Positions 3,690 through 46,831 of a stretch of DNA of 48,383 nucleotides are shown piece after piece. The stretch's first letter is position 1. Each line of letters begins with the position of its first letter. Origin of the DNA: a virus (Duplodnaviria; Heunggongvirae; Uroviricota; Caudoviricetes); the IMG/VR virus record IMGVR_UViG_2671180501_000010; one strand, written 5' to 3'. Made by a program: the position numbers and the translations under genes. Below the pieces are notes generated by a model. It made no database searches and was not told the DNA's origin. It was given only the letters and a program-made list of their open reading frames with translations.

Positions 3690-4249
3690 TCAGAACTTAT
3701 AACCGACACCCACGATGAAACCGTCAGTGCGCCAGTCGCCACTGCCGGAGCCTTCATAAGCAATATCAATGGCCACGGATTCGGTCGGGTTAAACTGCAC
3801 GCCAGCTCCCCACGCCAGAGACGTGTTGCTGTGGCGACCGTCATCACTTCCGGTCAGCACGTCGTGCGTTTTCCCCTTGTTGTCAGTTACGCGGAGATAA
3901 TCCCCGGAGAAAGTCGACACACGGCTGTAAGCCACACCCGCCATCGCATACGCGCTGAACCATTCATTCACGCGCACAGACGGCCCCGCCATTACGCTGA
4001 ACCAGCGGTTACGAACGGAATCTTCATGCCAGCGGGTATCGCTGTAACGGGTCAGCTGGCGATTCTTGTCTCCTGCATAGCTGAATGACGTCACCAGCCC
4101 CAGCGTATCCGTAAACTCATAACGGTATTTCACGTTAATCCCGTTCAGATCATCACTGCCGGGAACGTTGGTCCGGGCATGAAGATACCCCGCGCTCAGC
4201 GTGGACTGATGTTCAGACGCCCATGCAGGCGCACCGGATACGGCCAGGC
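3690..4249 (-). CDS. lomR: Lom-like outer-membrane beta-barrel protein; 5' end lies in the N-masked run
   Basis: Translation (…LAVSGAPAWASEHQSTLSAGYLHARTNVPGSDDLNGINVKYRYEF…GVGYKF) matches recalled lambda Lom; C-terminal aromatic residue; reading frame continues upstream into Ns starting at 4250. Confidence 0.8.
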
Positions 4250-4676
4250 NNNNNNNNNNNNNNNNNNNNNNNNNNNNNNNNNNNNNNNNNNNNNNNNNNN
4301 NNNNNNNNNNNNNNNNNNNNNNNNNNNNNNNNNNNNNNNNNNNNNNNNNNNNNNNNNNNNNNNNNNNNNNNNNNNNNNNNNNNNNNNNNNNNNNNNNNNN
4401 NNNNNNNNNNNNNNNNNNNNNNNNNNNNNNNNNNNNNNNNNNNNNNNNNNNNNNNNNNNNNNNNNNNNNNNNNNNNNNNNNNNNNNNNNNNNNNNNNNNN
4501 NNNNNNNNNNNNNNNNNNNNNNNNNNNNNNNNNNNNNNNNNNNNNNNNNNNNNNNNNNNNNNNNNNNNNNNNNNNNNNNNNNNNNNNNNNNNNNNNNNNN
4601 NNNNNNNNNNNNNNNNNNNNNNNNNNNNNNNNNNNNNNNNNNNNNNNNNNNNNNNNNNNNNNNNNNNNNNNNNNNN
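4250..4676. other. Run of 427 N (masked or unsequenced bases)
   Basis: Literal n characters; length fits the expected lambda-like J C-terminus, J-lom spacer and lom N-terminus, suggesting masking of real sequence rather than an arbitrary gap. Confidence 0.95.
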
Positions 4677-7600
4677 ATACCGTTAAAAATAATGGGCGGA
4701 ATAATAATCTGGCGGTCAAAGTTATGATCATCGCTGATGGTGACTGTAACCGTACCGTCTGGTGTTTCCGTGTTACCCCACGTACCGACTTTTTTCGGGA
4801 AGGCTTTTGATACAGCTTTAACGAAATCCCCTCTGACCTGGGTCGCCTCCAGCATGCCCTTAATCGTACAGTTCTGGTTAATCGTGACATTGTTGAGCGT
4901 TCCTGAGTTCGCATTCACACTACCACTGATATCCGCATTTTTAGCGGTCAGCTTTCCGTCTGATGTCAGGGAAAATACCGGAGGACTGCCACCGCTGGTA
5001 ATGGCGGGGGCTGTCAGGCGCTTCAGGAACACGTCGTTCATGAATATCTGGTTGCCCTGCGCCACAAACATCGGCGTTTCATTCCCGTTTGCCGGGTCAA
5101 TAAACGCGATACGATTGGCGGCAACCAGAAACTGGCTCAGCTTGCCTTCCTCCGTGTCCTCCATGCTGAGGCCAATACCCGCGACATAATGTTTGCCGTC
5201 TTTGGTCTGCTCAATTTTGACGCCCCACATCGCATTCCATTTATCGTTAGCGTCCTTCCACTCTTTCGAAAACTCATCCAGTCTGCTGGCGTTATCCTCC
5301 GTCAGATCAACTTTTTCCAGCAGCTCTTTACCGAGATGGGATTCGGTTATCTTGCCTTTGAAAAAATCCAGGTAACCTTCCGCATCATCGCTCGCCCGAC
5401 CGACGGCCTCCACGAATGCCGATTTGCCAACGGTGTTCACACTGCGGATATAAAAGTAATAATCATGGCCCGGTTTGATATTGATACTGGCGGCTATCCA
5501 GTACAGCCCCGCGCCAAGGTAGCGGGCTGTGGTTTCAACCTGCCTGATATCGGTAATCCGCGTTTCCGAGAACCAGAACTCAAACTGTACCGTCGGATCA
5601 TAAACCGCAAGATGCGGCGTGGCAGTTATCTGAAAATAGCCCGGCGTCAGCTCAATCCGCGACGGTGCTACCGGTGCGGCAATCCTGAACGATACCGACG
5701 CCGGATCGCCCTGCTGTCCCCAGGCATTTACCGCCCGGACTGTCAGCGTGTACCGTCCCAGCGCCAGTTGCGTGAAGCGGTATGTGGTTTCCGTCGTCCG
5801 GGCCGTGCTGACCAGCCGCTCACTGCCGTCATCCGCTGCCACGGTCAGGCGAAGCATAAAGCTCACCCCCTTCACCACCTTCGGCGTGTCCCAGCGCGCC
5901 AGCACCTGATATTCCCCGCTGTCTGCGGTGACTTCGGCAGTCAGGTGCTGCACCGCTGGCGGCGTGACACCATTCACCGTGCCGCTCTGGTCGCCGTCAA
6001 AGTGCGCCCCGTTATCCACGATGGCTTCTTTTTCCGGTACATGCTGCACGGCAGTGATGGCATACGTGCCGTCATCGTTCTCACGGATACTCACACAGCG
6101 GAACAGGCGCTGGCGCAACGTCGGCAGCTTCAGCCCCCACACGCTGTATTCAGCAACGCCGTCAGGAACACGGCTCACTTTCACCTTCACGCCGTCGGTG
6201 ACGGACTGAACCTCCACGCTGACCGGATTGCCACTTCCGTCAACCAGGCTTATCAGCATGGTACCGGAGGATGGCAGCGTGATTTCACGGTCGAGCGTCA
6301 GCGTCCGGGTCTGGCTGTTTACCGCCAGCACGCGCCCGCCGATGCTGATACCCGCATAGTCATCATCACAGATTTCAATGACATCGCCCGGCACATGGCG
6401 AAGCCCTTCTGCGCCCACGCTGAAGTCCACGGTCTGCGTTTCCAGCAGTTCTGTTTTAATCAGCCACAGCCCGGCGCGGTGTGCCTGCCCCCGGCTGGTA
6501 CAGCCAAAAGCATCCATCTTCGTGACGTTACGACCGTAACGGGCAATGGCCTGCGTATCCTCCACAAGCTCTGTCGCCGTCTCCCAGCCGTTATCCGGGT
6601 CAATCCAGTTCACCTCAACGGCATTATGGCGGTCTTTCAGGGCGCTGAAGCTGTAGCGGAACGGCGCGCCATCATCCGGCATCACCACATTACTGCGGTT
6701 ATAGGTCCACACCTTATCCGACGGTCGGTCCTGCACGAACGTCAGCGTCTGCCCGTTCCATACCGGCATACAGCGCATCGCCGAGCAGAAATCACTGAGC
6801 ACATCCCACGCCTTGCGCTGTGTGGTCAGGTACGCATTACAGGTGATGCGCGGCTCCGTGCCGCCAAAGCCGTCCGGCACTGACTGGTCGCAGTACTGGC
6901 CGATGACATACAGCGCCCATTTGTCCACATCCGCCGCACCAAGACGTTTCCCCATGCCGTAGCGCGGGTGGGTCAGCATATCCCACAGACACCAGGCCAT
7001 GTTGTTGCTGTATGCTGGTTTTAACGTTCCGTCCCAGATACCGCTGTATTGTCGCGTCTGCGGGTTATAGTTCGACGGCACCTGCAGAATGCGCCCGCGA
7101 AGATGATAATTACGACTCACCTGCTGGCTGCCGAACTGCTCCGAGTCCACCTGTACGCCGACCAGTGCAGTGTTCGGGTAGCACTGTTTCACATCGATGA
7201 TTTCGGTGTATGACGACCAGAGCGTTTTGTTCTGCAGCTGGTCTGTGGTGCTGTCCGGTGTCATCCTGCGCATCCGGATACTGAACGGGCGCGGAGGCAG
7301 GTTATCCACCACCACCGAGACCAGATACTGCGAGGTGGTTTTGCCCTTAATGGTGATGTCTTTTTCCGTCACCCAGCCACCGTTACGCTGTATCTGAACC
7401 AGCAGGCGGACTTCCGACGGATTCCTGTCTCCCTTTGAGGTGGTTTCNNNNNNNNNNNNNNNNNNNNNNNNNNNNNNNNNNNNNNNNNNNNNNNNNNNNN
7501 NNNNNNNNNNNNNNNNNNNNNNNNNNNNNNNNNNNNNNNNNNNNNNNNNNNNNNNNNNNNNNNNNNNNNNNNNNNNNNNNNNNNNNNNNNNNNNNNNNNN

Positions 7601-30261: not shown

Positions 30262-30789
30262 ACAGCGAATCAGATCAAATAAAACGCACATTTGTTAACA
30301 TTTACACAAAGTCTGCGTGGGATATTCTGAAAGAATATCCATAATGTGGAGAGAATCTATTGAAGTGCATGGTGCCGGGTGCCTCCCGGTGAACAAAATG
30401 TTCGTGATACCTGTCGGCGACAGAAAAGGTTAATGGTATCACCCCACCGCACAGGGGGATTCACCATGCAGGAGTTTTCTTAGCAAACTCACTGCGCGCC
30501 CGGCAACTCCCAACCACATAAAATGCGGAGTTTGTGGCATTTATGCATATAACTCGCAGGAATTATCTTAAAAAACTGATGTCGATCCGGATTAAAAAGA
30601 AGCAGGTCATCATCAGATGACTGGAAAAAAGGAAAACAAAAAATACTCATCATACAGTTTTGATTGCAGGGATGAGCCTGCTATGCACAATATGCAGAAT
30701 ATAAGCAAGATAAAAATATGCAGGCATATTATTTCGGATCTTGTTATTAACACAACCTTTTTAATAATCATTTGGCATACAATAAACCA

Positions 30790-32076: not shown

Positions 32077-32675
32077 TACGCAAACTCCAGTAGTTGTGCG
32101 GCCACATTTTCAACTTCCTCCTGAGAGGAGAATTTACGGAACAGAATCCAGTTCCACAGCACATTCAGTACAGATTTATAAACCTGCTGAAACTCGACTT
32201 CGTCCATATTCGCAAAAGCGATGGATTTTGCCCGACGCCCACGGCTACCGTCCGGATAAATATGCTCGGTGTAAAATCCGGCCTGAATGGTTACCCACTC
32301 GCGGAAAGCCTCAAACGACTTTAGCAACGCCGTATCCCGGGTTCTACGAGTCGCAACGGTGTTAAGGTATTGCTCTGCGGCATCACTCAGGGCTGGCGTG
32401 TGTTCCCGACCAACTGATTCGCACAGGTAATCAACGAAACCAGACAGCAGTTCTCGTTCGCGAGGCGTGATCGCCCCACCGACCGGAGTCCAGTAATCGA
32501 ATCCCAGTTGCAGGAGTTTGAAAAAACGCTTGTGGAATGCGTAGTTACGCACACGCTTAAAGTCTGCGTGTATCCACTCACCTATTTTGATTTGATGCAG
32601 AAAATCGCAACTCTCCGGCGTCGCCGGGAGAAGTAAACCAGAAGAGGTTTGTTTGACCAGTTGTATATGCGCCAT
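32076..32675 (-). CDS. nin-region protein, possibly DUF1367-like
   Basis: 199-aa ORF whose stop overlaps the ybcO-like start; family name is a weak recollection. Confidence 0.45.
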   Translation of the reverse strand: MAHIQLVKQTSSGLLLPATPESCDFLHQIKIGEWIHADFKRVRNYAFHKRFFKLLQLGFDYWTPVGGAITPRERELLSGFVDYLCESVGREHTPALSDAAEQYLNTVATRRTRDTALLKSFEAFREWVTIQAGFYTEHIYPDGSRGRRAKSIAFANMDEVEFQQVYKSVLNVLWNWILFRKFSSQEEVENVAAQLLEFA

Positions 32676-33433
32676 TTCTCAATCTCTCGATGGCGCAGCG
32701 CAGCAGATGCCAGTTGTTCAGGCTGACGAATAAAGTATAAATAAACTGGCTATGGTGTAAAGCCCCACATAGCATGAACAAACACTACATATCAAATAGC
32801 TGGTACAAGGATAGAAATACGACACTTATTATTAAAAACGATTAGATAAATTACATTTTAATGTTATGCAAAAGTTCTTTTTTATCATAACATTTCAATA
32901 AAAGCATTACAGATGCAATCATCCCGTCATCATCAATTATTTAAGGTGGTTAAACATGGAAAATAACAAGTTCGCACATCTCGCTCCTTTTTTATCCGTA
33001 ATCCTTTTCGCTTGTTGTTTTATATGGGCATTATTTTTATAAAGTAGCCACATGATAAGTTGCTGGAATCATATTTCCCACTCAAGTCATTAACATTTGA
33101 TAAGATATATCTAAAAGGACGCCTTTACATTATTTATGCGTATATAATTTATTTATATACACAGTAAAGGTATCCTGGGAAAATATTTATCGTTAAAAAA
33201 TACATCATAAATAATTAAGCTGAAATTTCAGAACACAACTAATACACACAATAAGGTTCAGTAACAGTAATCTATGTGGACTACATCGAGATTTTTTGAT
33301 TAAACTTTAATAACTTATTCCTAACACACAGAATGCATAAACTAAAAGTAAAACAAATAGTTATACGAAAAACAACCATATTTATTCTATCTTCTCCTCT
33401 AATCAACATATCAATTATGTGTTTCATAACAGC

Positions 33434-33466
33434 TTGACATAACCCTCCAAAAGATGCATTTTTAAT
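33434..33466 (+). promoter_or_regulatory. Candidate promoter for the YeaR-like gene (consensus -35, weak -10)
   Basis: Perfect TTGACA at 33434-33439; possible -10-like elements CATTTT / TTTAAT downstream; GGAGGAGG RBS at 33476-33483. Confidence 0.3.
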
Positions 33467-33488
33467 GCATGTTTTGGAGGAGGTGGTT

Positions 33489-33827
33489 ATGACACACAAG
33501 AGAATTCCTAAAGATTGGGTAATCAAACGCTCAACTCCGTTCTTCACAAAAGAGAACGTACCTTCAGCGTTATTAACACATCATAATACAGCAGCAGGTG
33601 TTTTTGGGCAGTTGTGCGTAATGGAAGGCACTGTAACATATTATGGTTTTACTGATGAGAATGCTACTGAACCGGAGATAAAAGTAGTCATTAATGCTGG
33701 CGCTTTTGCAACAAGCCCACCACAATACTGGCACCGTGTTGAACTAAGCGATGATGCTCAGTTTAATATTAACTTTTGGGTCGCTCCAGACTTTTCGGGC
33801 GAAAAAGTCTATAGCACCAAAAAATAG
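33489..33827 (+). CDS. YeaR-like protein (DUF1971; TehB N-terminal-domain-like)
   Basis: ATG 33489 after GGAGGAGG RBS; MTHKRIPKDWVIKRSTPFFTKENVPSALL…GTVTYYGFTDENATEPEIKVVINAGAFATSPPQYWHRVELSDDAQFNINFWVAPD parallels recalled E. coli YeaR. Confidence 0.75.
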   Translation: MTHKRIPKDWVIKRSTPFFTKENVPSALLTHHNTAAGVFGQLCVMEGTVTYYGFTDENATEPEIKVVINAGAFATSPPQYWHRVELSDDAQFNINFWVAPDFSGEKVYSTKK

Positions 33828-33856
33828 ATGATCATATTAAAAATGCTTTAACAGTC

Positions 33857-33895
33857 AGACCCGGCAGGGCTATCCCCGACGGGTCTCATTTTTGT
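33857..33895 (+). terminator. Rho-independent terminator after the YeaR-like gene
   Basis: agacccg…cgggtct imperfect stem with inner GGG/CCC pairing, followed by CATTTTT. Confidence 0.45.
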
Positions 33896-34447
33896 AAATA
33901 TATTGGTTCTACATTGACAGGAGACTTCAACCATAAGAAGTAATCTGAATACTTGAGCAATAAATTTACTTAAGATTAATGAGCGCACCTTGCCGGACAA
34001 AGATAAACCAAGGTAACACCTTTTTTCTAGCCAGTATGTAATCAATCAGAAAGCCGCTCCATAAGAACAACAGCAAGACAATAAATTGCCATTACAGCCG
34101 CAATAGCCAGCGCACATTTGAGAACCAGCACGACAACCCCCTGTATTAGACGCACACCAGTCCTGATAAATATGAGGCTGTCTCGTCAGTGATTCAATAC
34201 AACTATTGGGTATAGTTTCTGTGATTTTATTCTGTAGAAATGGAACACAACAACCAGTCACCACCAGCACTTCCTTAAATGCTCTAAGTCAGAAACAAGC
34301 CAACATTTTAGTCCGCTTTGAGCGATCTGCAGACATTGCTAGCAGCCTTCTGTGTGAATTCTCAGGGAGCAGGTCGGCATAGCATCACGTTGAGGCTCTT
34401 ACCCTACTTGTTCACACCAACCCTAACTCCACAGACTGATTCATAAA

Positions 34448-35449
34448 TTAGTAATCTGCGTGTTTCGCACTTTTCAGAAATGCTTTCATATTTTCATTAG
34501 GTCGCTCAATTTCGAAGTTACTTCCATATAACTCTTGTAATTTTGGCCATAACTTACTTAATAACCCTCTCCTGCGATAAAATGGATGTATCCAAACGGT
34601 AGATAGGTACGGAGAATTTGCATTTGAATTGTTTATTGTGACCAGCCCAACTAAACATTGTCGATAACCACTATTATCCATTGATTGTATTTCTTCGACG
34701 AATGGATACGCGATTACATCAGTCCAACCATGATCGGTTGTATCCCATTGCATTCCGTCATGACATTCCTTCGACTGATAGCGGCGTAAAGCTACACACG
34801 CGAGCTTTTGCCAATCTGGAGAATTAATTGTGATCTCTTCATCGTATGACGCGCCTATTGGAGCGGGTATTGGTCTGATTAATCCAGCATGGCATTCATC
34901 ATAGAACTTCATGTTTCCCTCAGAAACGTTGTGTACGTTGGGTTGCTCCATGTGTGCGCCATTCAAAAATAGCTCTGATAGTAGTGTATCTACACTGTAA
35001 TCTTTATTGATTATTGTCGGCTTAGAGTTTTTCTTATTAAGGCCGCGAGTAACGATTTTTTGATCAATGTTAACAACATGGAATAATCCGTCGGGGAGGC
35101 TAGCGAACCACGATGGGGCATCGGACCAGAATAGCATGCCTTTTGTACTTCTTAAGAGTTTAATTAAGTTAATACAAGCTTCTTCACTAGTCTTGCCGTT
35201 GATGCGAAGTATGTTAGGACTAAAGTAATATTCATCCATATCAGGGAATGCAGCTTCGCAAAACTCCTGTACATAATTTAGCACCTGGATTCTACAGAGA
35301 TCATCATAGCTGGTAATAACTAAGGGGGTATCTTCATTACTATTATGATTATCAATAATGCAATCTATAGCGAGACTTACTGCTTTGCGTATCACTTCAG
35401 TTGAATCTAACGACTCTAAAAATTTTGTCTTTCGTGTGCGAATATCCAT
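34448..35449 (-). CDS. Hypothetical protein (333 aa) with GNAT-acetyltransferase-like C-terminal region; second gene of a two-gene cargo operon
   Basis: ATG 35449 lies 15 nt after the stop of the upstream gene; C-terminal YLSTVWIHPFYRRRGLLSKLW resembles GNAT motif A; N-terminal 230 aa unassigned; about 35% GC. Confidence 0.7.
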   Translation of the reverse strand: MDIRTRKTKFLESLDSTEVIRKAVSLAIDCIIDNHNSNEDTPLVITSYDDLCRIQVLNYVQEFCEAAFPDMDEYYFSPNILRINGKTSEEACINLIKLLRSTKGMLFWSDAPSWFASLPDGLFHVVNIDQKIVTRGLNKKNSKPTIINKDYSVDTLLSELFLNGAHMEQPNVHNVSEGNMKFYDECHAGLIRPIPAPIGASYDEEITINSPDWQKLACVALRRYQSKECHDGMQWDTTDHGWTDVIAYPFVEEIQSMDNSGYRQCLVGLVTINNSNANSPYLSTVWIHPFYRRRGLLSKLWPKLQELYGSNFEIERPNENMKAFLKSAKHADY

Positions 35450-35464
35450 GTATGACCTGCGCTA

Positions 35465-36487
35465 TTAAAATTCATGAATGAACGGTTTGTCATCTGGTTG
35501 CAAAATGGTGGTTTTATTCGTTGCTACATTTAAACTGTTGTAGAGCATAATTGCCAGGTTCGATGCATTTTCAATCAGCGTTTCAAGATCCTGGTCTGTA
35601 ATCACTACGAGGTTCCCTTCTTTATCCTTTCCACCACGATGCACTAAGTGATTTCGATTGAGGGTTGCCAATTCAATAGCTTCTATCGGACAGTCTTTTT
35701 GTACTTTTATATCGAATGTAGCTTCATAGCGGTCGATTACCTTTTTAGTGCTATGCCAGCTTGCACTGATCAAGTGTTCCTTGATTGACCTGATTAGCTC
35801 TCCCCTAATTTTCTCGATGGGTTCACCCTTGAAAGGCAACGCAGCAATATCTTTGCTTACTTTAAATTCAGTCTTACCTTTTTCTATACAATTGGCTATG
35901 TAGACATCATCTTTCTCTATAGAATTAATGAATAGCTCAACATAAAGCGTTTCCAAAGCTGTAATAACATTCGTGTAGAGCAAACTAAGCAAGTGGTTTT
36001 TTTGCTGTTGTTCAGTTTTATCTTTTGCAAGTTTTTTTATTTTATCGATATTATCAATGAATTTTAAATACGGATTACCGGAAGACGTTACAGCGTCGTA
36101 GATATCATCATCGTACCAATCATCTATATTATTTGAGTTTCCAGACCAGTCAAAACATTGTGTTTGTAATTCATCTACTAATTCCTCAATATACTCAGAT
36201 TTAACATATTGACCGAAGATGGATTGTAGTTCTTCGCTCGCATCATACGGCCCGCCATATATGTAAGCATAGCCACCTTCTCTACTTTCATACGGACAAG
36301 CATTTGCCGGATCTTCAAAGTTTTCAAAGAACCAGTTTTTCATTACTTCGAGTTGATCTTTTTTGCTTATGTATTTTAAAGATTTTAGTGGAACTTTCTT
36401 TCCATTAACCTCGAAAACAATTTTCACGATGTAACGCTCCCTTGTATCAATTGCGCAACTATTATACCACAGCGAAATACAGGGCAT
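35465..36487 (-). CDS. Hypothetical protein (340 aa) with C-terminal R-N-x3-H (HEPN-like) motif; first gene of a two-gene cargo operon
   Basis: ATG 36487 preceded by AAGGAGG RBS (track ORF extends to 36556 but lacks an RBS); motif LNRNHLVHRGG at residues 277-287; AT-rich; candidate TTGACA -35 upstream. Confidence 0.7.
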   Translation of the reverse strand: MPCISLWYNSCAIDTRERYIVKIVFEVNGKKVPLKSLKYISKKDQLEVMKNWFFENFEDPANACPYESREGGYAYIYGGPYDASEELQSIFGQYVKSEYIEELVDELQTQCFDWSGNSNNIDDWYDDDIYDAVTSSGNPYLKFIDNIDKIKKLAKDKTEQQQKNHLLSLLYTNVITALETLYVELFINSIEKDDVYIANCIEKGKTEFKVSKDIAALPFKGEPIEKIRGELIRSIKEHLISASWHSTKKVIDRYEATFDIKVQKDCPIEAIELATLNRNHLVHRGGKDKEGNLVVITDQDLETLIENASNLAIMLYNSLNVATNKTTILQPDDKPFIHEF

Positions 36488-36625
36488 AACCTGCCTCCTT
36501 AAACTAACATACCATGAGCCAGCAATGTCCGCTATTGGCACAAAGCGGACAACCACGCTAGCTCTCCCCTGTGCCAGAAAAATGTCAATTTACATATGAA
36601 CTAATGCTCTTTGATCTAGTAACGT

Positions 36626-37042
36626 CTATAAATACCGAAGATTTCCTTGATAAAATGCCAGTACACGTTTCATAACTTCACTCTTCCGGCACTCGCGACA
36701 GATTATGTTCTGACGCCTGTCATAGCGGCGTATTTCTCCGTCTGGTAATGACCAGATAAGGTCAGGATCAACCACAACCGTTTTTTTCACCTTTGCCCTG
36801 GATAGTTTTTTGCGGGCGTTTTTCCAATCCTTACGAGCCTGTTCAGACGGGAATAACCCATAGCCAGAGTTGTATACATCGCCACTGGCAACCAACTCTC
36901 TGGCAAGAATGCTCATCAGATATCTTGTCGCACCTGTCTTGGCCTCCAGTTGCCTTAACGTCTCGCGCCCACTCTGGCGTACCAACTCAACAACCTGCTC
37001 CTTAATTTTTTCACGCTCTTCCTGTGTAAAAACTTTTGCCAT
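36626..37042 (-). CDS. Hypothetical protein (138 aa)
   Basis: ORF 36626-37057; ATG 37042 (MAKVFTQEE…) preceded by GGAGGCG; basic C-terminal half with a CRECRK motif. Confidence 0.6.
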   Translation of the reverse strand: MAKVFTQEEREKIKEQVVELVRQSGRETLRQLEAKTGATRYLMSILARELVASGDVYNSGYGLFPSEQARKDWKNARKKLSRAKVKKTVVVDPDLIWSLPDGEIRRYDRRQNIICRECRKSEVMKRVLAFYQGNLRYL

Positions 37043-46455: not shown

Positions 46456-46650
46456 ATGAGATATGACAATGTTAAACCATGTCCATTTTGTGGTTGTCCA
46501 TCAGTAACGGTGAAAGCCATTTCAGGATATTACCGAGCGAAGTGTAACGGATGCGAATCCCGAACCGGTTATGGTGGAAGTGAAAAAGAAGCACTCGAAC
46601 GATGAAATAAACGAACCACTGGAAATAATAATGGAGGTGTTCATGTATAA
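46456..46650 (+). pseudogene. ralR: Restriction alleviation protein RalR/Lar, interrupted by an in-frame TGA at codon 50
   Basis: Reads MRYDNVKPCPFCGCPSVTVKAISGYYRAKCNGCESRTGYGGSEKEALER-TGA-NKRTTGNNNGGVHV-TAA; the final TAA overlaps the ydaC ATG as in the intact arrangement; the recalled intact protein has W at the TGA position. Confidence 0.6.
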
Positions 46651-46831
46651 AATTACCGCCACTATTGAAAAGGAAGGTGGCACTCCTACTAACTGGACAA
46701 GATATTCAAAATCTAAACTAACGAAATCAGAATGCGAAAAAATGCTCTCAGGTAAAAAAGAAGCAGGCGTTTCCAGAGAGCAGAAAGTAAAACTGATAAA
46801 TTTTAATTGCGAGAAACTTCAGTCCTCGTGA
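46643..46831 (+). CDS. ydaC: YdaC-like small protein (62 aa)
   Basis: ATG 46643 after GGAGGTG; MYKITATIEKEGGTPTNWTRYSKSKLTKSECEKMLSGKKEAGVSREQKVKLINFNCEKLQSS. Confidence 0.6.
   Translation: MYKITATIEKEGGTPTNWTRYSKSKLTKSECEKMLSGKKEAGVSREQKVKLINFNCEKLQSS

Follow-up and report, generated by a model that had tools for sequence, protein, structure and literature searches.

Several defence proteins that act against phage with a HEPN domain, or with a domain related to one, have been described. The solo HEPN defence protein HepS, from the Salmonella prophage Gifsy-1, is an anticodon nuclease switched on by a phage protein and requires its R-x4-6-H motif (PMC13043305). aRES is described as a stand-alone RES-domain defence protein, in which a PF18870 (HEPN/RES-NTD1) domain is combined with a toxic effector; it gives E. 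coli protection against T7, accompanied by growth arrest, and does not belong to a toxin-antitoxin pair (bioRxiv 10.64898/2026.01.28.702374). HEPN domains are also listed for four of the systems validated by DeWeirdt, Mahoney & Laub ('DefensePredictor', Science 2026, PMC13092281), one of which, named DS-33, is entered in Table S6 as the proteins WP_014639476.1 (DS-33A) and WP_000354965.1 (DS-33B), with the working id 'GNAT', cloned under pBAD and scored as defensive. Here we describe a two-gene cassette, gene A followed by gene B, on the minus strand of a 48,383-nucleotide DNA from a virus of the Caudoviricetes (IMG/VR virus record IMGVR_UViG_2671180501_000010; this whole stretch is referred to below as the window). 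Gene A is already known: it is the gene for DS-33A.

The gene A protein is identical to the DS-33A sequence of Table S8 (PMC13092281) at 320 of 320 residues, save that the initiator is written as V or M, and the gene B protein is identical to DS-33B at 332 of 333 residues. The order of the genes, A then B, is also the same. Protection is given in Table S7 of the same study as log10 values for MG1655 in two replicates. Wild-type DS-33 protected against T7 (3.8 and 2.6), T3 (3.3 and 2.4), Bas67 (4.0 and 2.0) and Bas26 (5.0 and 5.9), and had a weak effect on T5. Protection was abolished by deletion of the HEPN gene (all values ≤0.55) and by the substitution R258A (all values ≤0.78), and it was kept on deletion of the GNAT gene (T7, 4.8 and 4.3; T3, 3.3 and 3.3; Bas67, 4.0 and 3.3; Bas26, 5.0 and 4.9). 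Defence against these four phages therefore needs gene A and R258 and does not need the GNAT gene. The original prediction, made from the DNA letters alone, had drawn gene A as an open reading frame (ORF) of 340 codons, read it as a candidate HEPN-type RNase or abortive-infection effector with an active site at R278 and H283, and proposed plaque assays of the cloned pair and an R278A mutant. Since R258 of the 320-residue protein is R278 of that ORF, these experiments have already been carried out, with results that support the HEPN assignment. We consider it likely that gene A is the effector of an anti-phage system of one protein, the published DS-33A, and that a Rac-like prophage carries it as low-GC cargo; the mechanism that we infer for it is set out below.

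The HEPN assignment is borne out by the fold and by the family to which the protein belongs (residues are numbered here as in the 340-codon ORF unless stated). The gene A protein has an all-helical, up-down bundle of the HEPN type, the fold for which a check had been suggested. The peptide LNRNHLVHRGG, which had been placed at residues 277–287, lies at residues 276–286, and the numbering of R278 and H283 was right; they correspond to R258 and H263 in the 320-residue protein. By our own estimate an R-x4-H motif is not improbable by chance in a protein of 340 residues, so that the motif alone is no proof, and its significance comes from its conservation in relatives. An alignment of 31 homologues, which extends down to 25% identity, shows no variation at R278, H283 and R284, and E179, W244 and H245 are likewise invariant in the C-terminal block. 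The N-terminal part of the same alignment contains the conserved motif MxxWFxxNFEDPxxxxPYxSxEGGYxYIxGGPYDA, and its invariant residues are M49, W52, F53, D59, P60, P65, E70, G71, G72, G78, G79, P80, F91 and W114.

Relatives connect this protein to two Pfam families. In a Pfam rescan, relatives at 31–35% identity scored above threshold for PF18735 (HEPN_RiboL-PSP; cut-off 28.4 bits) and for PF18870. The former is passed by P0101 (36.1 bits), P0108 (30.8), P0084 (30.1), P0112 (29.0) and P0202 (34.3), homologues that match the window protein at E values of 1e-28 to 1e-50, and the latter by P0112 (29.6 bits), P0115 (28.7), P0116 (28.7) and P0117 (27.7). Precomputed PF18870 matches are present in many relatives at 55–76% identity, and many of the 121 relatives recovered from a large protein collection carry precomputed matches to both families. 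An exhaustive profile search of representative proteins (one per 50%-identity cluster) returned 811 at E≤1e-30; with the limit relaxed to E≤1e-10 the number was 2,849. Most are of about 290–320 residues. Genome matches to the family span many bacterial phyla, and it is common in prophages. HEPN/RES-NTD1 and RiboL-PSP-HEPN were both defined computationally in the 2013 HEPN survey, which describes the former in fusions with HEPN, with RES and with other domains and lists the latter with an active-site motif. These data support a domain composition of HEPN/RES-NTD1 plus RiboL-PSP-HEPN for the gene A family. They likewise support R278 and H283 as the predicted catalytic centre of the RiboL-PSP-type HEPN domain, a prediction with which the loss of defence in R258A agrees. 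That the HEPN domain is instead a non-catalytic module for ligand binding or scaffolding, as in sacsin or the HEPN domains of the kanamycin-nucleotidyltransferase type, with defence arising from some other activity, is highly improbable given the invariance of the R-x4-H-R motif, the effect of R258A and the active-site motif listed for RiboL-PSP-HEPN in the survey. The proposal of a HEPN-type anti-phage effector has thus held up, with relatives that pass PF18735, an invariant motif and an identical protein, DS-33A, that defends.

Several points weigh against this assignment. The window protein itself falls below the Pfam cut-off for PF18870 (21.8 versus 27.4 bits, E 2.5e-4, residues 46–112), and no match to PF18735 was reported for it at E≤1. 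No model of PADLOC-DB v2 gives a meaningful match to either protein of the cassette, the best value being E 0.01, to PglX. DS-33 is not discussed individually in the main text of PMC13092281, the mutant data appear only in a supplementary table, and the results are phenotypes without a mechanism, obtained by expression from pBAD in MG1655 instead of in the native prophage setting. Our searches found no biochemical data on the gene A protein (RNase activity, target, oligomeric state or trigger) and no record of growth arrest caused by it, and an abortive-infection outcome is assumed by analogy only. Searches of other resources returned little. The scans of both proteins against NCBIfam gave nothing useful, the only PHROGs matches were phrog_17908 and phrog_16994, both of them families without a known function, and a PDB-sequence profile search gave no real relative, its best match being a ribosomal protein at E 0.043. 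A literature search on 'RiboL-PSP' gave nothing relevant, and neither did searches of main texts for the RefSeq accessions, WP_014639476.1 turning up only in the DefensePredictor supplementary tables. The text and tables of PMC13092281 yielded no data on infection of liquid cultures with DS-33.

The extent of gene A very probably differs from that first drawn. A 340-codon ORF does occupy positions 35465–36487 on the minus strand, and the AAGGAGG that had been taken for its strong ribosome-binding site is present (36494–36500), 6 nt ahead of the in-frame ATG at 36485–36487. One protein cluster in public collections (P0001) is called at 340 residues, in accord with a lineage-specific N-terminal extension of 20 residues. 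When the upstream DNA of six sequences from E. coli, Serratia, two Aeromonas species and Yersinia was aligned, a GTG at 36427 was found to be invariant in all six, and neither the ATG nor AAGGAGG was conserved. The upstream ATG is shifted from the frame by a 1-nt insertion in Serratia, has its place taken by a TTG without a Shine-Dalgarno site in Aeromonas caviae, and is absent from Yersinia and Aeromonas taiwanensis. The first 20 residues of the ORF are unmatched by any of the 31 aligned homologues, and relatives of the same lineage start at V21. Residues 1–19 are disordered in an AlphaFold2 model, with a predicted local distance difference test (pLDDT) score below 50. The relatives, the RefSeq annotation (WP_014639476.1) and the functional DS-33 construct all have the 320-residue form. 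Within the extension, moreover, lies the textbook extended -10 element TGGTATAAT, which has counterparts in A. caviae (TGATACAAT) and Serratia (TGGTACAAT) amid diverged surroundings. We therefore consider the 340-residue form very unlikely; the ATG start is very probably wrong, and translation very probably begins at the GTG to give 320 residues.

Both a Shine-Dalgarno site of the AAGGGAG type and the TGnTAnAAT element are retained among the closer relatives, namely in the window, A. caviae and Serratia, and a purine-rich equivalent of AAGGGAG occurs in most of the aligned relatives. From its sequence and conservation, TGGTATAAT is probably the cassette's own promoter. A TTGACA that had been proposed as a possible -35 hexamer is present at 36583–36588, but a promoter scan found no -10 partner for it, which leaves its role as part of a sigma-70 promoter unsupported; promoter-like sites in the region as a whole were no more frequent than expected by chance (9 versus 8.0±3.1 in shuffled sequence). 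Between the preceding DUF977 gene and the cassette there is an inverted repeat of 7 bp (GTCCGCT...AGCGGAC, 10-nt loop, 36527–36550, minus strand), largely kept in the upstream regions of Serratia and Yersinia. It lacks a trailing T-run and is not a typical intrinsic terminator.

Nor is an obligatory pairing of the two genes supported. In the 152 loci that were examined, gene B follows gene A only where A is ≥84% identical, that is, in E. coli prophages, Serratia grimesii and an element of A. caviae, and it is absent wherever A is ≤76% identical. Relatives of gene A at 57–76% identity have no tightly coupled downstream gene, in over 100 loci gene A stands alone, and no conserved partner gene was found around 78 species-level loci, where the largest neighbour cluster comprised four loci. 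Conversely, gene B occurs without gene A in Enterobacter, Shewanella, Neptunicella and Motilimonas. Gene B is a facultative neighbour that is unneeded for the published defence phenotype, with which the comparative data agree.

At the protein level, the sole difference between the cassette and the tested construct lies in gene B. Residue 289 (codon at 34583–34585) is proline in the window (WP_000354966.1) and leucine in the tested DS-33B. P289 is invariant in an alignment of 29 gene B homologues, where it is part of the GNAT half's conserved segment HPFYRR, and yet it is the rarer allele in the collection searched, with 31 contigs against at least 1,000 for L289. Only the L289 allele, which may be impaired, has been assayed, and the dispensability of gene B is therefore shown for that allele alone. 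The ancestral P289 allele may actively tune or extend the system, and L289 would then be a hypomorph.

These observations bear on whether A and B form a toxin-antitoxin-like pair, in which the GNAT protein would restrain the HEPN toxin, for example by acetylation, until infection released it. MNT antitoxins AMPylate HEPN toxins, and offer a model for such restraint. The genes are on one strand and 15 nt apart, and with the same spacing they move as a unit between E. coli prophage, Serratia and the relaxase-bearing element of A. caviae. Loss of the GNAT gene left protection equal or somewhat higher (T7, 3.8 to 4.8 and 2.6 to 4.3; Bas67, 2.0 to 3.3), and the contribution of B may be underestimated since the tested allele carries leucine where the distant homologues all have proline. 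The strain lacking the GNAT gene is nevertheless viable and defends, so that B is no essential antitoxin, at least as the L289 allele; each gene is found without the other, A being solitary in every relative at ≤76% identity; and the DefensePredictor log-odds are 1.08 for B against 9.45 for A. The gene distribution and the published deletion thus led us to rank a HEPN/GNAT toxin-antitoxin pair low, and we regard it as unlikely. HEPN-MNT toxin-antitoxin systems of type II/VII (for example SO_3166/SO_3165, PDB 5yep) consist of a minimal HEPN protein of ~130 residues and an obligatory MNT nucleotidyltransferase. Gene A differs from these in its extra N-terminal domain and in having no MNT and no obligatory partner, its neighbour being of GNAT fold and not conserved with it.

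For the preferred reading, in which gene A acts as a single-protein effector, we propose the following course of events. In the lysogen, an extended -10 promoter of its own would drive expression of the protein, which would stay inactive until infection, when the N-terminal domain (NTD1) would sense or relay a phage cue. The HEPN domains would then pair into a metal-independent endoribonuclease with a composite site, as is established for HEPN enzymes, and would cut tRNA, mRNA or rRNA. The resulting stop in translation would prevent the production of phage, and the infected cell would probably bear the cost. In this scheme the GNAT gene would be a recently attached passenger or modulator.

By analogy, sensing or autoinhibition would most naturally fall to NTD1. 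It is fused to HEPN in DS-33A, to a PIN nuclease in P0116 and to unnamed domains in P0115 and P0117–P0120. We suggest, tentatively, that NTD1 is a portable phage-sensing or autoinhibitory module mounted on interchangeable killers, and that, independently of this, the P289 form of gene B may tune or extend the system. aRES resembles gene A in being a single protein with a PF18870 N-terminal domain that protects against T7, but its effector is a RES NAD+ phosphorylase and not a HEPN nuclease, and the likeness in NTD1 is that of a shared Pfam domain, not of a sequence comparison. Our hypothesis, again by analogy, is that DS-33A and aRES, both of which act on T7, would respond to the same infection cue. 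A link between the two proteins through NTD1 was not found stated in the searched parts of PMC13092281 and bioRxiv 10.64898/2026.01.28.702374.

Two further defence proteins can be compared with gene A. The nearest known one by HHblits is component B of PD-T4-2 (Vassallo et al. 2022), with a probability of 96.1 and a coverage of 0.55 as listed in Table S8 of PMC13092281. It belongs to the same RiboL-PSP-HEPN subfamily, but the similarity is confined to the HEPN half, and the PADLOC models of PD-T4-2 give no match at E≤1. PD-T4-2 was reportedly selected on T4. HepS is likewise a single HEPN protein; its accessory gene comes right after the replication genes in its lambdoid prophage, in a region similar to that of gene A. 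A relationship with HepS was considered and rejected, as no sequence or structural link was found to accompany the similar position.

Its gene content, together with a RalA small RNA, marks the window as a Rac-like lambdoid prophage of E. coli. Genes for an integrase, exonuclease VIII, SieB, YdaT, a DUF1376 replication protein, a DnaC-like protein, DUF1627 and DUF977 are followed by the cassette and then by DUF1367, DUF1364 and a DUF1133/Q-like protein, so that the cassette has the replication and DUF977 genes on one side and the late-gene regulator region on the other. The AT-rich composition noted in the original prediction is confirmed by GC contents of 0.36 for gene A and 0.39 for gene B, against 0.50 for the adjacent replication genes. 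The low-GC island continues past the two genes (32500–34450), with GC down to 0.29 at 33000–33499, and on the opposite strand it contains a DUF1971 gene (33465..33827). In ATCC 11775, hokD is found at the corresponding position downstream of gene B. Three Rfam families score above their gathering thresholds elsewhere in the window, among them RalA, the antitoxin small RNA of the RalR/RalA pair of the Rac prophage (Table 1).

Table 1. Features of the cassette and its surroundings, in window coordinates
Feature	Position	Strand	Description
Gene A, coding sequence	35465..36427	minus	320 residues, GTG start, TAA stop; WP_014639476.1, DS-33A
N-terminal domain, HEPN/RES-NTD1 type	36128..36427	minus	Residues 21–120 of the long ORF; candidate sensor or regulatory module
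C-terminal HEPN domain, RiboL-PSP-HEPN type	35522..36040	minus	About residues 150–322 of the long ORF
R278-N-H-L-V-H283-R284 codons	35636..35656	minus	Predicted R-x4-H catalytic motif; translation verified
20-codon extension of the first ORF	36428..36487	minus	Most likely 5' leader and promoter, non-coding
TGGTATAAT	36461..36469	minus	Candidate extended -10 for gene A, read from the sequence; putative promoter
Shine-Dalgarno AAGGGAG	36437..36443	minus	For the GTG start; 9-nt spacer
Spacer, gene A stop to gene B start	35450..35464	minus	15 nt; same spacing in the Aeromonas caviae copies
Gene B	34448..35449	minus	333 residues, DS-33B equivalent; P-loop-NTPase-like N-terminal half and C-terminal GNAT acetyltransferase fold
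RalA	46649-46827	minus	Rfam match
IS009	256-454	minus	Rfam match
STnc100	30313-30499	minus	Rfam match

The cassette is present in 205 of 5,426 complete E. coli genomes. Sixty viral or prophage contigs of IMG/VR match the query, about 37 of which encode a near full-length relative, the rest matching in the N-terminal domain only. The cassette is absent from the deposited phage genomes searched, a megablast search of the phage collection having matched the DUF977 flank only. With the 2.4-kb cassette region (34300–36700) as query, the match in E. coli H5 (NZ_CP084096.1) and H11 (NZ_CP073936.1) is interrupted by insertion sequence elements (IS3-like of the IS2 family; ISSen4). In A. caviae (loci L086–L088, ~3963–5993) the proteins are 84–85% (A) and 79% (B) identical to those of the window; the cassette is carried there, beside SIR2 and cREC_REC genes, in a defence-island-like setting that is unrelated to the E. 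coli prophage. A 3.3-kb scaffold assigned to a 'Collinsella sp.' metagenome-assembled genome (L006, JAIHTM010000277.1) encodes both proteins at 100% amino acid identity to the E. coli cassette, and is probably a mis-binned or contaminating contig from Enterobacteriaceae.

As a discovery, the analysis of this window adds little, since the identical protein is the validated defence system DS-33 and the mutants proposed for it have already been made. The difference between P289 and L289 is a caveat on the published dispensability of the GNAT gene. For a family that is large and common in prophages, the residual interest lies in the mechanism, and the N-terminal domain common to gene A and aRES offers a concrete route to how single-protein defences sense infection.
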